DNA of 64,000 bases from a virus (taxonomy: Duplodnaviria; Caudoviricetes). Of this stretch, positions 7,536-24,872 are shown one piece after another. Position 1 is the stretch's first letter, and each line of letters starts with the position of its first letter. The notes below the pieces were generated by a model that was not told where the DNA came from, did no database searches, and saw only the letters and a list, made by a program, of their open reading frames with translations. Made by a program: the position numbers and the translations under genes. The DNA lies in the IMG/VR virus record IMGVR_UViG_3300028588_000019, positions 1 through 64,000 of that record. One strand, 5' to 3'.

Positions 7536-7951
7536 TTAGCCACCGTTTGCGTACGATCCATATACCACTCGATGGTTCGACGAGCTTCCTCCCATGTGTA
7601 GCAGACAGCGTAGAGGTAACCTTGTTCGGAAACATGCTGCCCGAATTCGATTTGCTTGTCGGACTCTTTACCGGCGCGCTGTTTCTTTTCCTTGTCGGTA
7701 GGCTTTTTCATTTCAATGAACAGGCCGAAGTTCATACCCCTGGCGCACGGCAGGAAGATGTCAGACACACCCGAGCGCACGCCTTCAGCTTTCAGCCTGG
7801 ACGCAACAGCGATGTTACGCTCGCCGCCGTTCGGGATTGCGAACATCCATTTCAGCTCAGGATGCTTCTCCCGGTTTTGTGCAGCCCAGCAGAAGAGAGC
7901 AACTTGGTGGGCGTGTTCGGTATTTGGTTTTGCGAGGTCTTCTGGTTTCAT
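7532..7951 (-). CDS. VRR-NUC domain nuclease
   Basis: FAIPNGG..R, EGVRSGVSDIFL, FIEMKK, Q..F pattern (PD-(D/E)xK). Confidence 0.85.
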   Translation of the reverse strand: MKPEDLAKPNTEHAHQVALFCWAAQNREKHPELKWMFAIPNGGERNIAVASRLKAEGVRSGVSDIFLPCARGMNFGLFIEMKKPTDKEKKQRAGKESDKQIEFGQHVSEQGYLYAVCYTWEEARRTIEWYMDRTQTVAK

Positions 7952-8983: not shown

Positions 8984-9402
8984 AATTTTACCTCATTGTA
9001 GTTGAAGAGTGCTGCAAACGGACCCTGCGGCCAACGATTGCACACTTCGTTGATGAATTTGTTGGTACGACGCAGGGAACCGGCACCGGGCTCCCTGCCA
9101 AAAGTTTCGGCGGTGCCAACTTCTGTGTACACCGTTGGTGGAACAAAGTTTGGATCGGTTGGACCGGGTACGTCTGGACCTTCACCATAAGACCAGACTG
9201 CAATGTAGGGCCCGTGACCGTTCTGAGGGCGCACCCAGCCGCTAACGTACAACTTGGACTGCCCGCGAAGTTCCTTCAACCGCGACCGAACGGCTGAACG
9301 ACCCACGCCAAGTTTTGCAGCCAATTCGTTCAGCGTCCCGGGCATGTGGGCAATTACTTGGTCGTGGGTGAGGCGGTTGATGCCTTTGCGAGCGTTAAGC
9401 AT
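8980..9402 (-). CDS. HTH DNA-binding protein
   Basis: TLNELAAKLGVGRSAVRSRL helix-turn-helix followed by a wing. Confidence 0.65.
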   Translation of the reverse strand: MLNARKGINRLTHDQVIAHMPGTLNELAAKLGVGRSAVRSRLKELRGQSKLYVSGWVRPQNGHGPYIAVWSYGEGPDVPGPTDPNFVPPTVYTEVGTAETFGREPGAGSLRRTNKFINEVCNRWPQGPFAALFNYNEVKL

Positions 9403-9626
9403 TAGAAGCTCCAGTCCTTGGTACAGATGTCCAGCGCTTCTGCTGGCGTGAACCCTTGCGCAATAGCTGCATCGTAACGGGCTTTGCAGATGCGCGCCTT
9501 ATACCCAATTACTTCAACTTGCATGTCGAAGCCGTCGTTTAAGCTTTTGAGCGCATGCGCCTGCGTTGCACCAACCTTATTGACGCTGGTCAGCGCGTTG
9601 TTTGGAGTTTTCGGTTCGTTGTTCAT
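9402..9626 (-). CDS. Hypothetical protein
   Basis: 74 aa, coupled; ends GFTPAEALDIC. Confidence 0.6.
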   Translation of the reverse strand: MNNEPKTPNNALTSVNKVGATQAHALKSLNDGFDMQVEVIGYKARICKARYDAAIAQGFTPAEALDICTKDWSF

Positions 9627-12610: not shown

Positions 12611-13330
12611 GGGATCATGTATCCAGAGGGTTAAGGGGTGCAACAGGGACAACTGTACAGGGGAAATGCGGTTATGCAAAGGAATATTTTACGGGGTGGA
12701 ATTTGGACTGATCGTGGTGTAACTATCGGGTCCGAGATACGGAATTTTCGGTGGGGTATTTTTTCCGCAAATGGGTAATGTTGAGGTGAAAAAGGGAAGG
12801 GGGTGGGTCTAGTGGAACAGATAGAGGATGGGATTGGAGGGCAGTGATGGTTCTAGATAGGGAACTTTGGATTTTTTACCTAAAATATCACCCCATAGCC
12901 TAATATATAGGCATCCGCCCCGATTTACTTACGGCCACTATGTTCCACGCGTTCCACGCACCCTACAGCGCACGCGCGCACAGCACCCTCCTGCCCCACG
13001 CGCAAATTGTTCCACGCGCGCCTACCCCTGTTCCACGCGGTTTAAACCGCATACCTGCTGCCAGGGTGCGCCAGGGTGCACCAGGCACCCCAGCCGCAGC
13101 CCCATAGGTTTTAGCTATGTGTTCCAGTTTGCCCGATAGTTATATACAATCTGCCAAGGTGCACAACCGTGTATAGTTACACCTATGCGCTGCACACAAC
13201 GCTGCACGCAGTACCCCGCAAGGGGTGCGCTGTACCCTTGCTTTTTAACAACATAGCAGCTTACTACTAAGCAACATTACTATATAGCAATAATGCTGTA
13301 TAGCAACATACTTTACTATAGGTAAACATT
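12611..13330. other. Divergent non-coding control region; candidate origin or genome terminus
   Basis: No convincing ORF; plus strand is G-rich to about 12870, then C-rich; iteron-like repeats and a palindrome. Confidence 0.6.
12941..13050 (+). repeat. TGTTCCACGCG direct repeats and 14-bp palindrome
   Basis: Copies at 12941, 13008 and 13029, a partial copy at 12951; GCGGTTTAAACCGC at 13037-13050. Confidence 0.8.
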
Positions 13331-13900
13331 ATGCAAAACGCTAAATTCGGTAATACCAAAAACGCAATCGCACGTATGCAAGCACGCATTGCAGCTGTAC
13401 AAGCACTGCGCAGCAGCAAGCACGCTGCTCGGGTTGCAGCACGCAACCAACAAGCGTTTACCCTGCAAATGCAGCAGCTAGCAGCACAGTACAACGTTGC
13501 ACCCGAGCAGCTTAAAGCAATGCTTGGTGCTACCGACCGTGCAGCACGCGCTAACAGTGCAACTGCTAACCCTAGCACCGAACTGGTAACGGTTAACGGT
13601 GTTAGTTACAAACCATGCGCAGCAGTGCACGCACTGTGCGATTGGTTGGTTAGCACCGAACCAAACGCAACCCGTAAGCAAATGTTGGAGTTGTGCAAGG
13701 ATAATGGCATTAACGCAAGTACTGCTGCAACGCAGGTCGGTTTGTACCGTGCACGCGCTAAAGCAGCAGCAGACGCAGCACAGTAATGCAGCAGCACCCC
13801 GAACAGGGGTGCGCTTGCTAGTGTACCTTGGCAACAGGGTGCACCACCAAGCAACAACGTAGCAGATACAAGGTACGCAAGGCGCCCTACCCCTCGCTGG
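13151..13900. other. GA/TC-depleted island
   Basis: No GA or TC dinucleotide from 13151 to 13347; about 12 in the 456-bp ORF that follows (manual count). Confidence 0.9.
13331..13786 (+). CDS. Ala/Gln-rich protein with C-terminal wHTH-like domain (paralog family member 1)
   Basis: C-terminal AVHALCD...RKQMLELCKDNGINASTAATQ aligns with the proteins at 18422, 39782 and 40696. Confidence 0.7.
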   Translation: MQNAKFGNTKNAIARMQARIAAVQALRSSKHAARVAARNQQAFTLQMQQLAAQYNVAPEQLKAMLGATDRAARANSATANPSTELVTVNGVSYKPCAAVHALCDWLVSTEPNATRKQMLELCKDNGINASTAATQVGLYRARAKAAADAAQ

Positions 13901-14239
13901 GTAGCATCGCTGACCAGCACACCAATGGGTGTGAACAATTAGTAAGCTCTTTAACAATCTATAAGCTCTGCTCCCACGTTTACACCTTCACGAATAGGGT
14001 GTGGGATGACAGGCAACCCCCATGAGTAACCGCGTGCGTGTATGAGCCCGGGACCAAGGATTAAAAGCCGCATGGGGGAAAATATATTCAGTGGTCCGAC
14101 CTAACCTGAGTAACAGCTAGTACCTTATCACGAGAAGGTTAGTCAGCATGGTCGGGGTGTGCCCGCGTGACAGGCGGCATACTTATGTTCACTACCAAGT
14201 GCACATAAGTTGATAACCACACTAACAGGGGAATTAATC

Positions 14240-14479
14240 ATGGCATACAACGCTAATATCGAGCAACTTGCAGTCGACATCAAAAGCTTGACCGATACCG
14301 ACCTGCAATACCTCGTCAGCTTGCTCAGCAGCGACAGTGACATGGAGGACGACGTCCGCGAGTCAAGCTGCATGGGTGCAATGGCTTACGCATACCGTAC
14401 CAGCCGTGCAGTCATCGCTCAGCGCGACTTCAACCTGCGCGAGCAGGCAGCGATGGATGACGCGAACTACAAATGGTAG
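14240..14479 (+). CDS. Small early protein
   Basis: AGGGG RBS; starts MAYNANIEQL. Confidence 0.6.
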   Translation: MAYNANIEQLAVDIKSLTDTDLQYLVSLLSSDSDMEDDVRESSCMGAMAYAYRTSRAVIAQRDFNLREQAAMDDANYKW

Positions 14480-14527
14480 AGTAATTTACTAGCTTGCCGT
14501 GGCAGGCTAGTGAGTGCACTCTGCACT
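14480..14527 (+). repeat. Two-hairpin intergenic element, copy 1
   Basis: AGTAATTT + ACTAGCTTGC-CGTG-GCAGGCTAGT + G + AGTGC-ACTCT-GCACT. Confidence 0.85.
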
Positions 14528-14550
14528 AAACCAACTAACAGGAGTAATTC

Positions 14551-14700
14551 ATGGCAAAGTATAAGATTTCTTACACCCTCAACGGTGCACCACGGAGCAA
14601 GGCTGTTTCAGCTGAAAGCGACGGAGAAGCTTGGGAGCTAGCTGAAGAAATAGCTGACCAGTTTGACGACTGTGAAATCATAAGCGTTGTCGAACAGTAA
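14551..14700 (+). CDS. Small early protein (49 aa)
   Basis: AGGAG RBS; MAKYKISYTLNG...; below the ORF-track cutoff. Confidence 0.65.
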   Translation: MAKYKISYTLNGAPRSKAVSAESDGEAWELAEEIADQFDDCEIISVVEQ

Positions 14701-14752
14701 GAGTAATTTAGTAGCCTATTCACGAGTAGGTTACTGAGTGCGCTCTTGCACT
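14701..14752 (+). repeat. Two-hairpin intergenic element, copy 2
   Basis: GAGTAATTT + AGTAGCCTATT-CACG-AGTAGGTTACT + G + AGTGC-GCTCTT-GCACT. Confidence 0.85.
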
Positions 14753-14777
14753 AAAACAACAACATAGGGAGTAACTC

Positions 14778-14975
14778 ATGAAAATGATTAAATTCGGTCT
14801 TATCCTCACCTTCACGCTTAACACCGTACTGCTTGGCGCTTTTGACCGCTGGGCTAAGTCCGGTGATGGTTTGGAGTGGTACGGTTTGCTGATGGAAGTT
14901 GCAGTGAGTCTTGCAATGTTGGCAAACTTGCTGTCCGCTTCCATGGTGGCAATTTTGCATGCGGAGGGCAAGTGA
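14778..14975 (+). CDS. Small two-TM membrane protein
   Basis: GGGAG RBS; two hydrophobic helices. Confidence 0.6.
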   Translation: MKMIKFGLILTFTLNTVLLGAFDRWAKSGDGLEWYGLLMEVAVSLAMLANLLSASMVAILHAEGK

Positions 14976-15058
14976 CCCTCTACATCACTCTGCTCGGGTA
15001 CGTTGTACCTGCAATCGCAATCACGTACTTCGTCAAAACCATCATTAACGACCTGTGA
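14972..15058 (+). CDS. 28-aa single-TM peptide
   Basis: GTGA overlap; MTLYITLLGYVVPAIAITYFVKTIINDL. Confidence 0.5.
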   Translation: MTLYITLLGYVVPAIAITYFVKTIINDL

Positions 15059-15110
15059 AAGTAATTTGTAAGCCTGGCGCGCTAGGCTTGCGAGTGCACT
15101 TTCCCGCACT
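15059..15110 (+). repeat. Two-hairpin intergenic element, copy 3
   Basis: AAGTAATTT + GTAAGCCTGG-CGCG-CTAGGCTTGC + G + AGTGC-ACTTTCCC-GCACT. Confidence 0.85.
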
Positions 15111-15132
15111 ATCACAACATAAAGGTAATACT

Positions 15133-15483
15133 ATGAACACCATCACCACCCACGCAGCATACATCGCTCACCTCGTTTCTAACGGTCGTCACGCAGGCCT
15201 TGCCAAAGCAATGGTCACCGAGTTCTTCTGGTCAAGCATTAACGGACCAGAAAACGACCTGTTGTATTCGGGTAGCGACGAGGAAACGCCATGCAGCCTC
15301 GAGCCAGCGCAAGCACTTGCCGAATTCGATGCAATTGTTCATGATTACAACGCTGCTGTAACCGAGGATGGCATCATGTTCGACGGTGAACTTATGTTCG
15401 ACCTCGACGGTGAGTATGCCACAAGCGGCTCAGGCAACGCATCGATCGTTCGTGGCTACGAGAACGGCGGTAACTTCAACTAA
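15133..15483 (+). CDS. Acidic early protein
   Basis: AAGG RBS; D/E-rich, 116 aa. Confidence 0.65.
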   Translation: MNTITTHAAYIAHLVSNGRHAGLAKAMVTEFFWSSINGPENDLLYSGSDEETPCSLEPAQALAEFDAIVHDYNAAVTEDGIMFDGELMFDLDGEYATSGSGNASIVRGYENGGNFN

Positions 15484-15533
15484 GAGCAATTTACTACCTC
15501 AGCGTGCTGGGGTAGTGAGTGCGCTCTTGCACT
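15484..15533 (+). repeat. Two-hairpin intergenic element, copy 4
   Basis: GAGCAATTT + ACTACCTCAG-CGTG-CTGGGGTAGT + G + AGTGC-GCTCTT-GCACT. Confidence 0.85.
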
Positions 15534-15553
15534 ATCACAACATAAGGATTCAC

Positions 15554-15682
15554 ATGTACACAATTATCGCCTTGATTGAAGTTTGCCATGAAGTAGTCTT
15601 CACCCGCGACGGGTTGTACCTCGTCACCACCATCGTGGACCACTTCAACAAGCGCACCATCCAAATTGCAGAGGAGATCTAA
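15554..15682 (+). CDS. Small early protein
   Basis: AAGGA RBS; starts MYTIIALIEV. Confidence 0.55.
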   Translation: MYTIIALIEVCHEVVFTRDGLYLVTTIVDHFNKRTIQIAEEI

Positions 15683-15684
15683 TC

Positions 15685-15903
15685 ATGCGTCATCCAATCG
15701 ACTTTCAAGCTTCGCATGCTCAGATTAAAGAAGACCCTGAGTACGCAATCGAAGTGCTTGTTCACTATGTGCCGTTCAACCTGCACATGATGATTAACGA
15801 ATTCATGGACGAGTTCGTACAAAAGCATTCATTCCAGGTGTACACGGCCAGCCCACTCGTTGGTCAGTTCTTCATGTGGTTGAAGGACACCCACAAAGAT
15901 TAA
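15685..15903 (+). CDS. Small early protein
   Basis: GAGGAG RBS; 72 aa. Confidence 0.65.
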   Translation: MRHPIDFQASHAQIKEDPEYAIEVLVHYVPFNLHMMINEFMDEFVQKHSFQVYTASPLVGQFFMWLKDTHKD

Positions 15904-15952
15904 AGCTCTAGCTAAGTGGTCTTCACGGGCCACTTGACGAGCGCTTTGCTCG
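15904..15952 (+). repeat. Two-hairpin intergenic element, copy 5 (variant B)
   Basis: AGCTCTAGCT + AAGTGGTC-TTCACG-GGCCACTT + GA + CGAGC-GCTTT-GCTCG. Confidence 0.75.
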
Positions 15953-15969
15953 CTAACAAAGGAACTAAA

Positions 15970-16260
15970 ATGACTAAGATTGAATTAACGCAGTTCAAAC
16001 AGACCAACCTGCGCGATGTTCTTGAACGTGCACAGGAACTCTTGGTGAGTCTTGCAACCATCTGCAACGACAACAAGAGCCGAATCCAAATCGCTGAAAA
16101 GATGCTGAAGCAAGTTGACCCAGGCGATGACTGGGAGCGGGTTGCTTGGTCGCTGGTCAACATCGAGTTGGTTGAGCGGATTATTCGTGAAGAGGACGCA
16201 AGCCTTCTGAAGTATCCTGAAGACTGGGATGGCGGCATCAACGTTGGGACGAAGGAGTAA
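15970..16260 (+). CDS. Small early protein
   Basis: AAAGGA RBS; starts MTKIELTQF. Confidence 0.65.
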   Translation: MTKIELTQFKQTNLRDVLERAQELLVSLATICNDNKSRIQIAEKMLKQVDPGDDWERVAWSLVNIELVERIIREEDASLLKYPEDWDGGINVGTKE

Positions 16261-16263
16261 TTC

Positions 16264-16452
16264 ATGATTAAGCTGATCCCGCTCCCAAAGACGCCGAAGG
16301 TTCGCGTCAACCTGCACCTCGAGGAAGGTGTGGTCGCCCACTTCAAGCATGTCGCTGAGCTTGAAGAACGCCCATACCAGCCACTCATTAACAAGGTGCT
16401 TCGCGAGTATATCGAGTCGCTGCCGCCTGAGCAACGTTATCACAATCGCTGA
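16264..16452 (+). CDS. BrnA-antitoxin/CopG-like ribbon-helix-helix protein
   Basis: KVRVNLHLEEGVVAHFK...PYQPLINKVLREYI matches the BrnA pattern VtiRld.dV..wFk...gYQtriN..LR. Confidence 0.7.
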   Translation: MIKLIPLPKTPKVRVNLHLEEGVVAHFKHVAELEERPYQPLINKVLREYIESLPPEQRYHNR

Positions 16453-16570
16453 GGTGCTGATGTGTTTTGGGACTACGTTCTAGCAGTCATTGCACTGTGT
16501 TTGATCCCACCCGCCGTCGTATTCCTGATTCTTTGGTGGTTTGGCGACGACTTTTAATTAGGAGAGCGAA

Positions 16571-16789
16571 ATGAGTAAACCCCTCACGATTGAACAAGAA
16601 ATCCACGCTCGCATCAAACGGACCGAGCTTTTCGCAGCAATGAGGTCTTCAGGTAATTACGAAGACGATCTTGCAATTATCGACATCATTCTCGAAATGC
16701 GCGAGCGTGCCCGCAACGGGGGTGACCCCGAAGAACTCTTATACGAAGAGGGCTTTGAACCCGACTACGTATTTGACCTTATTGACTAA
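16571..16789 (+). CDS. Small early protein
   Basis: AGGAG RBS; DPEELLYEEGFEPDYVFDL acidic C-terminus. Confidence 0.7.
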   Translation: MSKPLTIEQEIHARIKRTELFAAMRSSGNYEDDLAIIDIILEMRERARNGGDPEELLYEEGFEPDYVFDLID

Positions 16790-16845
16790 AGCTCTAGCTC
16801 ATGACCACACTACCACGGTGCGGTCATGGTCGAGCGCTTTGCTCG
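16790..16845 (+). repeat. Two-hairpin intergenic element, copy 6 (variant B)
   Basis: AGCTCTAGCT + CATGACC..CACG..GGTCATG + GT + CGAGC-GCTTT-GCTCG. Confidence 0.75.
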
Positions 16846-16863
16846 TAATAGAAAGGACATTGT

Positions 16864-17028
16864 ATGCTGCAATACAGAAAGGCGCTGATTGATTTCAGCC
16901 ACGAGTACTTCCATCAGTACATCGATGAATTCCTTGCGGGATACAGCATCCCAGCAGGTATGACCTATCCTCAACTTGTCCACCAGTTCGCTGAGTGGTG
17001 CGAGTCTTGCGGCTTTTGGGAGGTTTAA
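16864..17028 (+). CDS. Small early protein (54 aa)
   Basis: AAAGGA RBS; starts MLQYRKALIDF. Confidence 0.55.
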   Translation: MLQYRKALIDFSHEYFHQYIDEFLAGYSIPAGMTYPQLVHQFAEWCESCGFWEV

Positions 17029-17030
17029 CC

Positions 17031-17237
17031 ATGAAGTTCGAATTCAAAAGCTCGAACGGCCAACTCATGATGAGTATTGAGTCCCCGAACACTAAGTTCG
17101 CCAAGCTGGTCAAGCAAATGTTCATTAACGAAATGAAAGACATTCACGGACCAGGCTTCAACATGTCCGTCTCCACTCCTATCGAGGGTGGGACGTTCGA
17201 GCAATACAGCCACGGTATCGAGTGCCGGGTATCATAA
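17031..17237 (+). CDS. Small early protein
   Basis: GGAGG RBS; starts MKFEFKSSNG. Confidence 0.6.
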   Translation: MKFEFKSSNGQLMMSIESPNTKFAKLVKQMFINEMKDIHGPGFNMSVSTPIEGGTFEQYSHGIECRVS

Positions 17238-17291
17238 AGTAATCTCCTAGCTCGTTCTGCGGGCTAGTGGATGCACTTTAAATATGTGTAT
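17238..17291 (+). repeat. Two-hairpin intergenic element, copy 7 (degenerate)
   Basis: AGTAATCT + CTAGCTCG-TTCTG-CGGGCTAG + altered second hairpin ATGCAC..GTGTAT. Confidence 0.5.
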
Positions 17292-17353: not shown

Positions 17354-17821
17354 ATGAGCAAGCGTCACGACATAAGCGGTCAAAAGTTTAATCAACTCAC
17401 TGTAACGAGTTTCTCGCACACAAGCCCAACAAGGCGTGCGATGTGGAATTGTGTCTGTGATTGTGGAGGCACAACAGTTGTGTCACTGCAAAACCTGCGC
17501 AATGAAAAGGTCAAAACTTGCGGGTGCATATTCACGTACCTCTGCCAAGATGAGATCTATGGTGTTTGGAGGGGTATGATTCAACGCTGTACCAATCCAA
17601 ACTCTGAAGGTTGGAAGCATTATGGTGGTCGAGGGATTACTGTCTGCGAACGATGGAAGTTGTTTAAGAACTTTCATGAAGATATGAGCCCGCGCCCTAG
17701 TCCCGAGTACCAGTTGGACCGCAAGAACAATGACGAAGGGTACTCAAAAGACAATTGTCATTGGATTACAGGCCTTGAGAACATTCAAAAGGCACACGCA
17801 ATTAAACGAAGTAAATCTTAA
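17354..17821 (+). CDS. HNH homing endonuclease
   Basis: WNCVCDCG, WRGMIQRCTNP, YGGRGITVCERW, LDRKNNDEGYSKDNCHW motifs; own extended -10 (TGGTATAAT) at about 17311. Confidence 0.9.
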   Translation: MSKRHDISGQKFNQLTVTSFSHTSPTRRAMWNCVCDCGGTTVVSLQNLRNEKVKTCGCIFTYLCQDEIYGVWRGMIQRCTNPNSEGWKHYGGRGITVCERWKLFKNFHEDMSPRPSPEYQLDRKNNDEGYSKDNCHWITGLENIQKAHAIKRSKS

Positions 17822-19261: not shown

Positions 19262-19435
19262 ATGATGAGTGGTGAAAAGCTTTACGCACTCTACGAAGAG
19301 GGGAACTCCACGTTGAACAATTGTATCGTCGACACTTGGGAGCAGTTATCAACTGACGACAAAGCTGTTTGGGAGCGCATGGCAGAAGATATCAACGACC
19401 ATACGCAACGTGCCATTACCGACGTATTCACCTAA
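19262..19435 (+). CDS. Small protein (57 aa)
   Basis: AGGAG RBS; its stop TAA abuts hammerhead 1. Confidence 0.6.
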   Translation: MMSGEKLYALYEEGNSTLNNCIVDTWEQLSTDDKAVWERMAEDINDHTQRAITDVFT

Positions 19436-19484
19436 CCACACTGACGAGACCTCAATGGTCGAAACCGCTTCGGCGGTCTGTGGT
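19435..19484 (+). ncRNA. Type I hammerhead ribozyme 1
   Basis: ACCACA CTGACGA GAC-CTCAATG-GTC GAAA CCGC-TTCG-GCGG TC TGTGGT: intact core, three stems, predicted cleavage after C19478. Confidence 0.92.
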
Positions 19485-20096: not shown

Positions 20097-20270
20097 GTGA
20101 ATAGTCTTGATCGGAGAATCGTACGTAGTCGTAATAAGCGAGAGGGTTGCTACTACGACCGACCTATTTGGTGGAAATACAAAAATGGTCCAAACCGTAA
20201 GAAACGGAACGAGTTAAAGCTGGTGCAACGCGGGAAGAAGTTTAGTACCACTCGGACCAAGAAAGTTTAA
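20097..20270 (+). CDS. Small basic protein (57 aa)
   Basis: GAGGAGG RBS, GTG start, K/R-rich; its stop abuts hammerhead 2. Confidence 0.6.
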   Translation: MNSLDRRIVRSRNKREGCYYDRPIWWKYKNGPNRKKRNELKLVQRGKKFSTTRTKKV

Positions 20271-20331
20271 CCACACTGACGAGCGCTAGTGCGCGAAACC
20301 GTGGCACGGAATATTGTGCGCGGTCTGTGGT
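20270..20331 (+). ncRNA. Type I hammerhead ribozyme 2
   Basis: ACCACA CTGACGA GCGC-TAGT-GCGC GAAA CCG..GCAC-loop-GTGC..CGG TC TGTGGT; predicted cleavage after C20325. Confidence 0.9.
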
Positions 20332-23316: not shown

Positions 23317-23508
23317 ATGAAGTACAAAGCATTTTACAAATGTCGCTGGTGTCAGGGGGTTTTTAGCTATAGTGTGCCTGAAAACCACCGTAACAATCCG
23401 GTCGGTCTCACCATGCAACATTCGATGGTGACAACGCATAAGTGCGACGACATCCGAACAGGAATCGCTGACCTCATAGGCGTTAAGACGGAGAACTTAA
23501 ATGATTAA
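23317..23508 (+). CDS. Small Zn-ribbon protein
   Basis: GGAGG RBS; YKCRWC...HKC...GIADLIG. Confidence 0.65.
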   Translation: MKYKAFYKCRWCQGVFSYSVPENHRNNPVGLTMQHSMVTTHKCDDIRTGIADLIGVKTENLND

Positions 23509-23788
23509 CGCAACCAACTTCAAAACCCTCGACCTCAAGAAAGTAATTGAGCGCGCCAACGAAATCCTGTGCTGTCTGCCACTGCTTGATCCGCATGTGG
23601 CCTACGGTCTTGAGATTGCTGAAGGTCGTTTGACCGGGCAAGACATTGTATCTCGTCACGAACCGCTGGACCTGTGGGAGAAGCTGGCGTGGCAAATGGT
23701 TTACGCAGAGCTTCGAGAGCAATGCATTCGTGACGGTGACCCGAGCGTTGAAAAGCGCCCAGTCAATTGGAATGGTGGTTTGACCTAA
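23501..23788 (+). CDS. Hypothetical protein
   Basis: GGAG RBS; 95 aa. Confidence 0.6.
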   Translation: MINATNFKTLDLKKVIERANEILCCLPLLDPHVAYGLEIAEGRLTGQDIVSRHEPLDLWEKLAWQMVYAELREQCIRDGDPSVEKRPVNWNGGLT

Positions 23789-23837
23789 GTACCAGCCACA
23801 GCGTCGTGACAGGGCGCTGTAACGGGTGCTTTACCCG
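23789..23837 (+). repeat. Two-hairpin intergenic element, copy 8 (variant C)
   Basis: After TAA: ACAGCGTC-GTGACAG-GGCGCTGT + AA + CGGGT-GCTTT-ACCCG + ACAAC-AGAGGAG. Confidence 0.65.
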
Positions 23838-24592: not shown

Positions 24593-24799
24593 ATGGATAT
24601 GCGAGTGCGCGAAAAGACGGACACCGATCGCCAAAACGACATCAACCGTCTTTCGCACCAAGAAATGGCGGAAATCATGCATTTCACGCCGAATAACCAC
24701 ACTTACCGCACTGGCCCATACCGCGCCATGTTCGACGCACGATTCAAGCGGCTGGGTGGTATGACCAAAGAACTGAAAAAAGAACTTGCAGCCTACTGA
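24593..24799 (+). CDS. Hypothetical protein
   Basis: AGGAG RBS; its TGA stop lies inside the core of hammerhead 3. Confidence 0.65.
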   Translation: MDMRVREKTDTDRQNDINRLSHQEMAEIMHFTPNNHTYRTGPYRAMFDARFKRLGGMTKELKKELAAY

Positions 24800-24840
24800 T
24801 GAGCTCGTAAGAGCGAAACCGCCGAGAGGCGGTCTAGGCT
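24790..24840 (+). ncRNA. Type I hammerhead ribozyme 3
   Basis: AGCCTA CTGATGA GCTC-GTAA-GAGC GAAA CCGCC-GAGA-GGCGG TC TAGGCT; predicted cleavage after C24834. Confidence 0.93.
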
Positions 24841-24872
24841 TAATAACAAGTCTAACTAAACCGGAGGTTATT

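Follow-up and report, generated by a model that had tools for sequence, protein, structure and literature searches.

What is the role of the structured spacers that separate the small genes at the start of the rightward gene block of an uncultured phage? The question arises in the first 64 kb (64,000 nucleotides, here called the window) of the 72,474-bp IMG/VR virus record IMGVR_UViG_3300028588_000019, which has direct terminal repeats. A first-pass annotation of this DNA described seven intergenic spacers that have the same layout, and this layout is seen again in the extracted spacers: a stop codon, a leader, hairpin 1, a linker, hairpin 2, a CA-rich tract, a Shine-Dalgarno (SD) sequence and an ATG. 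It named as possible functions a processing signal, a new ribozyme, a put-like antiterminator, a protein-binding translational enhancer and the ends of recombination cassettes, of which the processing signal is the best supported. The two-hairpin fold itself does not stand as the main structure, since the stop-codon region and the leader pair with parts of hairpin 2 to give one extended hairpin. The presence of these structures and of selection on them is well supported. With about an even chance, the element is a site for processing by a host RNase III-type enzyme which would refold after the cut, so that hairpin 2 would cap the downstream mRNA. Cleavage, the enzyme responsible for it and the stabilising roles are proposed by analogy with phage T7 and with the hammerhead ribozymes found in neighbouring spacers.

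Layout and copies of the element

The leader after the stop codon reads AGTAATTT, AGCAATTT, AGTAATCT or AGCTCTAGCT in the seven spacers. Hairpin 1 has 9–12 bp of variable sequence with T.G wobbles, and its loop is mostly CGTG, CACG or CGCG. The linker between the hairpins is 1–2 nt and the stem of hairpin 2 is 5 bp. Type A elements are composed of AGUAAUUU or AGCAAUUU, hairpin 1, a G and AGUGC-RCUCUU-GCACU, and a variant, termed type A′, displays AGUAAUCU with GAUGC or GGUGC stems. Type B elements are composed of AGCUCUAGCU, hairpin 1, two bases and CGAGC- or CAAGC-GCUUU. Types A and B are different at most single-stranded positions. The copies in the window are listed here; P3 denotes the helix between the stop-codon region and the hairpin 2 loop, and MFE the minimum free energy.

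14477–14527, + strand: copy 1, type A; MFE −30.4 kcal/mol, z −6.3, 91% of ensemble
14698–14752, + strand: copy 2, type A; P3 AAGAGU with GCUCUU; hairpin 1 of 11 bp with a CACG loop
15056–15110, + strand: copy 3, type A; stop codon UGA; P3 GAAAGU with ACUUUC
15481–15533, + strand: copy 4, type A; P3 AAGAGC with GCUCUU
15901–15952, + strand: copy 5, type B; AGCUCUAGCU leader; hairpin 2 CGAGC-GCUUU-GCUCG; P3 UAAAGC with GCUUUG
16787–16845, + strand: copy 6, type B
17235–17279, + strand: copy 7, type A′; AGUAAUCU, GAUGC-type hairpin 2; 37.7 bits; truncated after the hairpin 2 loop
17280–17843, + strand: insertion breaking copy 7; TATAAT promoter and HNH endonuclease gene (17354–17821)
23786–23837, + strand: copy 8, divergent; hairpin 2 CGGGU-GCUUU-ACCCG

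The count of seven copies given in the first-pass annotation thus needs some change. Six copies are intact, copy 7 is truncated in hairpin 2, and a divergent eighth copy has been added. All eight are on the + strand, which is the sense strand, directly after stop codons and ahead of an SD sequence and ATG. The element is compact, about 55 nt from the stop codon to the leader of the next gene. In copy 1, for example, the element is followed by a CA-rich leader, an SD sequence and the ATG at 14551. The pattern AGTGC-N4-8-GCACT occurs four times where 0.55 occurrences are expected by chance, and at element sites only; CGAGCGCTTTGCTCG is present twice in the array. Searches of the whole 72-kb record with covariance models gave no copies beyond those listed.

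Hairpin 2 of copy 7 is represented by its 5′ half, after the leader and hairpin 1, and the sequence then passes into the TATAAT promoter and the gene of the HNH endonuclease. X2, a strain variant found in a different leaf-litter sample, displays past position 17279 an intact GATGC-type hairpin 2 followed by the ribosome-binding site of a different gene, and its depth is 0 over positions 17406–17672 of the HNH region. Because X2 continues as an intact element without HNH coverage, copy 7 was evidently split by an insertion. The word ATGCACTTT is duplicated at the junction of the HNH insert in copy 7.

Covariation and the extended fold

The first-pass annotation took G-U pairs and covariation as signs that the element functions as RNA, and this is borne out by compensatory changes, by strand asymmetry and by the presence of the G-U pairs on the sense strand. 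In the type A alignment of hairpins 1 and 2, 95.4% of cells are paired (71% when shuffled) and 13 of the 15 pairs show changes on both sides; in the type B alignment the comparable values are 93.8% (60.4% when shuffled) and 12 of 14 pairs. Sliding the pairing partners gives only 23–41% paired cells. Both alignments were fitted to the two-hairpin model and are therefore biased toward it. Eleven different complementary hairpin 2 stems were counted by eye.

Evidence that is independent of the alignment model comes from X2. Its hairpin 1 sequences have six differences in copy 2 and five in copy 3 (the latter including two compensatory pairs), and none of them breaks pairing. The eleven differences resolve into three double substitutions that are compensatory, a deletion of both bases of one pair, and three changes by which a G-U pair was gained or lost. 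The X2 contigs are of low depth, so that single differences could be errors, but the paired pattern is not error-like. In addition, type A elements fold at −25 to −30 kcal/mol on the sense strand versus −12 to −19 kcal/mol on the antisense strand, an advantage of 10–13 kcal/mol for the sense strand. Therefore the selected molecule is the mRNA.

The bases outside the two hairpins also pair. The P3 helix (5–7 bp) joins the end of the stop codon (its final one or two bases) and the 3–4 nt after it to the entire "loop" of hairpin 2. Type A examples are AAGAGC/GCUCUU, AGAGU/ACUCU, GAAAGU/ACUUUC, AACAGU/ACUGUU and AAAAGU/ACUUUU. All 106 of 106 type A cells are paired, against 10–65% in slid controls, and double changes are seen in three of the six pairs (AU9/GC8/CG1/GU1 at one and UA7/CG6/UG6 at another). 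The model used to build the alignment had left the P3 columns unpaired. In type B, 80 of 80 cells are paired with little variation. Length changes are matched as well: in copy 3 the G of the UGA stop codon pairs with an extra C that is not found in the loops of the other copies, and in one relative an extra A after UAA is matched by an extra U in the loop.

A second helix, P2, joins AUUU (or AUCU, GCC) of the leader to the linker G and the first bases of hairpin 2. Its cells are 94.7% paired, and one pair is UA in 13 sequences and CG in six, i.e. UA has changed to CG in six sequences. Because of P2 pairing the leader variant (AAUUU or AAUCU) tracks the hairpin 2 variant (AGU or GAU).

P3, P2 and hairpin 1 together can form one two-tier hairpin of 20–23 bp, or about two helical turns, in which hairpin 1 is the upper stem. 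In copy 1, P3 joins positions 14476–14482 to 14518–14524 and contains the UAG stop codon, P2 and hairpin 1 join 14484–14497 to 14502–14515, and the alternative hairpin 2 is at 14513–14527. The middle tier is weak. In type A it consists of AUUU with GAGU (two G-U pairs) and a 1x2 internal loop, and in type B of a run of 1x1 mismatches, as in copy 5. In copy 8 a 4x4 internal loop separates an upper stem of 8 bp from a lower stem of 7 bp, in which the stop codon is included.

The extended hairpin is the MFE structure of copies 1–4 (−24.7 to −30.4 kcal/mol, z −3.7 to −6.3, 43–91% of the ensemble). It is also present in copies 5, 6 and 8, and it stays the MFE structure in the natural sequence context. 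The RNAalifold consensus is the extended hairpin, even on the alignment that was fitted to two hairpins. In type A it is favored over the two-hairpin fold by 3–8 kcal/mol in most copies.

These folds bear on the proposal that the element is a transcription signal for the host RNA polymerase, i.e. a terminator lacking a U-tract, a pause site or a put-like antiterminator. A stable hairpin does lie directly after each gene. The put site of phage HK022 has two stems split by one base, with one promoter-proximal site per operon, and in its alternative state the element resembles put, having two stem-loops with one unpaired base between them. However, no U-tract is present: after hairpin 1 come G and hairpin 2, and the sequence downstream of hairpin 2 is rich in A and C. 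A consensus scan shows neither a sigma-70-like promoter nor a terminator-like site on any of the copies, in agreement with the first-pass view that they are not ordinary terminators, while canonical terminators are present elsewhere in these operons. Unlike put, the elements number seven to eight in one operon, each after a stop codon, and their predicted ground state is the extended fold. A role as a transcription signal is thus highly improbable.

The pairing of the hairpin 2 loop bears equally on the proposal that hairpin 2 is the operator of a phage RNA-binding protein, either a global translational repressor or activator of early genes, on the model of T4 RegA or of the gp43 operator hairpin, or a Cas6/Csy4-like endoribonuclease. 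The 5-bp hairpin has a conserved apex, GC-RCUYU-GC, and is 10–20 nt upstream of the SD sequence of at least seven genes, as would suit an operator. However, pairing with the stop-codon region already accounts for the loop conservation base for base, so that a bound protein, including the translational enhancer of the first-pass annotation, is not needed, and the lower stem varies freely. A candidate RNA-binding protein was found neither among the array proteins nor among the large open reading frames. We consider an operator quite unlikely.

Predicted alternation between the two folds

The extended fold and hairpin 2 should exclude each other on geometric grounds, because P2 takes the 5′ arm of hairpin 2 and P3 its whole loop. 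As hairpin 2 covaries too, both folds seem to be under selection. A full pseudoknot in which P3 and hairpin 2 form together was considered and is unlikely from general pseudoknot geometry, as there are no linker bases to span P3 and P2 occupies the hairpin 2 5′ arm. Covariation between the hairpin 2 loop and the downstream SD sequence, inspected by eye, is not consistent.

When the stop-codon region is blocked (positions −15 to +12), the predicted MFE structure of copies 1–6 becomes hairpin 1 plus hairpin 2. This is what would be expected of a conformational switch that is gated by translation and does not require a cut. A terminating ribosome would melt P3 and P2 to leave two hairpins, and in a ribosome-free message the long hairpin would close and take in the stop codon; the output would be differential stability or insulation of cistrons by a barrier to exonucleases or to RNase E scanning, not site-specific cleavage by RNase III. 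The mutually exclusive pairings each covary, the stop codon is within P3 in every copy, and in type B the two folds are isoenergetic, all of which agree with a switch. On the other hand, the predicted accessibility of the downstream SD sequence and AUG shows no consistent change between the free and the ribosome-at-stop states (copy 8 left out), so that no output is visible, and the hammerheads in equivalent slots, described below, speak for physical cutting. We regard a switch without a cut as possible but rather unlikely.

Hammerhead ribozymes in equivalent spacers

Three hammerhead ribozymes are found in other spacers of the same operon.

19435–19484, + strand: hammerhead 1; UAA abuts stem I; 26.6 bits, below the Rfam cut-off
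20270–20331, + strand: hammerhead 2; complete core; UAA abuts stem I
24786–24843, + strand: hammerhead 3; 25.8 bits; 3′ product starts with a 7-bp 5′-terminal hairpin, then SD sequence and ATG

All three display complete cores, two of them are just below the Rfam cut-offs, and they are found in relatives as well. The UAA stop codon directly abuts stem I in the first two, and in the third the stop codon appears to be inside the core. In two of the hammerheads, cleavage would release a stem I strand that is predicted to pair with downstream bases as a 5′-terminal hairpin ahead of an A-rich leader, an SD sequence and ATG. Hammerhead 1 is one of these and is a functional analogue of the elements in an equivalent slot; six relatives (L037, L138, L139, L140, L141 and L142) have it in the same slot. 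The sequence of events in which RNA pairs with the stop-codon side, is cut and refolds into a 5′ cap is explicit in the hammerhead modules, whose chemistry is known. Their presence in equivalent slots argues that physical cutting is the purpose of these spacers.

The synthetic insulator RiboJ is a ribozyme joined to a hairpin. Like RiboJ and other hammerheads of phage operons, the hammerheads of the window are predicted to cut the message upstream of a gene and to leave a short 5′ hairpin before the ribosome-binding site. The hairpin elements, in contrast, lack a catalytic core, and a protein nuclease would be required to cut them.

The operon and the equivalent slots held in common with hammerheads would fit a new class of small self-cleaving ribozyme, another of the first-pass proposals. 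However, nearly all conserved bases are explained by pairing or by the stop codon, so that no conserved unpaired core is left after P2, P3 and the stop codon are accounted for. The Rfam search gave no ribozyme match on the elements, and the differences between types A and B fall on most of the single-stranded positions. That the element cleaves itself is scarcely credible.

The word UAACCACAC is found at gene ends or leaders at 14214, 19433, 20268, 27488 and 31319, and a hammerhead is next to it only at 19433 and 20268.

Proposed processing and comparison with known signals

In the proposed mechanism, host RNase III would cleave the extended hairpin in the weak middle tier or close to it, leaving hairpin 1 as a protective 3′ end of the upstream message. 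The freed 3′ strand would fold as hairpin 2 and cap the 5′ end of the downstream message, just upstream of the unstructured CA-rich leader and the strong SD sequence. With a cut placed as in T7, on the 3′ side of this tier, the downstream RNA would begin with hairpin 2 or most of it. The hammerheads in the other spacers would serve this purpose by cleaving themselves. A by-product may be that the conserved elements act as crossover points for the swapping of small accessory genes. No phage-encoded RNase III was found; therefore the host enzyme would be used. A search for a T7-like RNA polymerase gave no match, and its control was also without a match.

The early spacers of T7 were folded from the RefSeq record for comparison. 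In the fold of the 0.4/0.5 spacer, the stop codon of gene 0.4 is within a lower stem of 9 bp, above which are a 4x5 internal loop and an upper stem of 10 bp. Dunn and Studier (1983) reportedly placed the R0.5 RNase III site in this spacer. The T7 signals (R0.3, R0.5, R1, R1.1 and R1.3) are similar to the elements in being sense-strand hairpins repeated between early cistrons, with an upper stem of about 10 bp, a weak or internal-loop middle and a lower stem that contains the upstream stop codon (0.4/0.5 fold). The outcome proposed here, which leaves a 3′ hairpin on the upstream message, would also be alike. Unlike the T7 signals, the element can form a second covarying hairpin, in which the 3′ strand of the lower and middle tiers pairs anew with downstream bases; refolding of this kind is not known in T7. 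The elements also differ in sharing their slots with hammerhead ribozymes, and their cleavage is proposed by analogy. For R1.1, a 60-nt hairpin interrupted by a 4/5-nt internal loop, one main cut is described, which gives fragments of 47 and 13 nt (PMC6121014).

Several points weigh against processing by RNase III. The lower stem of the elements is 5–7 bp, which is shorter than the 9 bp of T7. There is no sequence similarity to the T7 sites: the upper-stem sequence AAGGUC...GGCCUU of the folded T7 spacers, after which UAUGA comes, is not present in the elements, and hairpin 1 is unrelated and variable. The specificity of RNase III varies between bacteria (PMC6121014). In type B the extended and two-hairpin folds are isoenergetic, and a switch without a cut accounts equally well for the double covariation. 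Finally, RNA from the array is represented only by two 151-nt contig pieces of one run (15118–15268 and 15335–15485), which might be one fragment spanning the gene at 15133–15483, and RNA ends are not visible in contigs. Small parts of the region are present as contigs in three metatranscriptomes.

The Bs-RNase III sites of the Bacillus phages SP82 and SPO1 are a further hairpin family between early genes that is cut by host RNase III. These sites belong to another sequence family and to other hosts.

The word AGUAAUUU resembles the classic A/U-rich RNase E consensus. Reading it as an RNase E site was rejected, as type B elements lack the word and the word is explained by P2 and P3 pairing.

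The elements and the stop-codon-anchored hammerheads may also be ribosome-gated processing switches, where the release and capping of each cistron are timed by translation of the upstream gene. The cut-competent fold needs the strand with the stop codon and the bases right after it, and would form only after the last ribosome leaves the upstream gene. A protein-dependent hairpin and a ribozyme would then have converged on the same gating and refolding logic in one operon. This reading is tentative and, in our estimate, rather unlikely.

If processing with refolding is true, it adds to the known punctuation signals of phage mRNA a strongly covarying RNA family that is absent from Rfam and from the cultured phages searched. 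In contrast to what has been described for T7, the site would be bistable, and its 3′ strand would fold anew to cap the following message. The question is raised whether protein-cut hairpins and ribozymes are interchangeable for splitting a transcript into separately stabilised messages, and whether the cut is ribosome-gated. With its stop-codon anchoring, its clear covariation and the refolding hammerheads beside it, the family is well suited as a model case. Being compact, the elements could serve as natural insulators in operon engineering.

Relatives and mosaic gene content

The first-pass annotation recognised no known family, and Rfam has no family that matches the elements at gathering score or at an E-value up to 10. 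Weak Rfam matches over the array, HCV_SLVII and Cyano-2, are attributed to chance. Covariance searches had been suggested as a check. Covariation is strong and the elements are present in uncultured relatives; nothing significant was found in cultured relatives. The covariance models R1 and R2 gave a best E-value of 0.08 on the cultured phages NP1, MMDA13, VPv62, DoCa3 and HD01. Blastn searches with the 4-kb region and with single elements against 50,697 cultured phage records gave no genuine match; a match to Stenotrophomonas phage Sonora is within a structural gene and is a chance match.

Relative contigs were fetched by means of homologues of the conserved neighbour protein encoded at 13331–13786 and by exact patterns. 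Nine distinct contigs (L138/L005, L139, L140, L141, L142, L145, L037, L162 and L153) have elements after stop codons, and L149 and L150 have a weaker single match each. At least 30 further copies are present in the related uncultured phages. The contig scans with exact patterns gave mostly chance matches, except for L005 and L037, and a single-protein scan of IMG/VR with a neighbouring gene gave no relative.

In L037 a spacer at 7815–7865 (− strand) retains the AGCAAUUU leader and the post-hairpin ACUAUCAC tract without both hairpins and looks like a deleted element. L037, which is low in GC, also displays a long tandem CAAGCAA-like run at 9330–9420 (− strand), directly after the conserved first gene.

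Between the conserved genes at 13331 and 18422 (the latter of 250 residues), the gene content is different in every relative. Copy 4 matches at 56 of 57 positions an L138 copy whose flanking genes are unrelated, although identity in the conserved neighbour protein is just 55%. Orthologues of gene 15970 have a type B element upstream here and a type A′ element upstream in L138. X2 diverges exactly within the hairpin 2 loop of copy 7. The elements mark cassette junctions.

A comparable arrangement is that of the PeSLs of T4-like phages, which are motifs between the stop codon and the SD sequence/ATG that flank ORFans and mark points of insertion, deletion and replacement; they are defined by a strong sigma-70 promoter and a terminator stem-loop (PMC2839356, PMC4122927). 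The present elements likewise flank ORFans in a hyperplastic region and mark the ends of indels and replacements. Unlike PeSLs, they have no promoter or terminator consensus and show selection on RNA pairing. The terminator trait is represented by a stable stem, but the U-tract is absent and the terminator scan is empty; the real TATAAT promoter that adjoins copy 7 is within the HNH insert.

The repeats might matter mainly as DNA, i.e. as PeSL-like linkers for homologous recombination that shuffle single-gene cassettes. The variable gene content between conserved genes, the near identity of copy 4 to the L138 copy and the X2 break in the copy 7 loop are all in accord with this. As a correlation, the first-pass proposal of recombination cassette ends stands, with a hypervariable ORFan block and strain and phage breaks located at the elements. 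As a selected function it is disfavored, since recombination needs identity, yet the stems change sequence and keep pairing, with G-U pairs on the sense strand only, and the PeSL-type consensus is missing. It is more probable that recombination is a consequence than that it was selected for, and a role mainly as DNA is very unlikely.

Genome setting and neighboring sequences

The phage is a siphovirus, and its large open reading frames include a tape-measure gene and those for a portal, a primase, a helicase and a DNA polymerase. The primase shares about 52% identity with the primases that Nipunavirus phages of Pseudomonas and Xanthomonas encode. DNA of the phage was recognised by word matching in leaf-litter and soil metagenomes. 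Genes are directed leftward up to about 12.6 kb, a repeat-rich control region follows, and genes are directed rightward from 13.3 kb. The element array is at the start of the rightward block, among small genes, and judging by this position the transcript that carries it is presumably early and polycistronic. Nine of ten array proteins tested display no Pfam family.

Several GTTCCACGCG-like words are found in the control region at 12920–13040, between the leftward and rightward gene blocks, and the word is also repeated in the relative L137 at 9130–9230. These could be operator or origin repeats.

A 459-nt non-coding spacer (13787–14239) before the first array gene is conserved in relatives, and its last hairpin (about 14180–14215) shows compensatory changes. 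RNA contigs from two metatranscriptome studies cover positions 13834–14156 and 13848–14090 of it. This spacer may be an abundant structured non-coding RNA or a leader.

The gene at 16264–16452 has a weak similarity to BrnA antitoxins (24.1 bits, below the cut-off). In relatives its homologue always comes after a family member of the gene at 15970–16260, a paralogue of which is at 23501–23788. The genes at 15970–16260 and 16264–16452 may be a toxin-antitoxin-like pair.

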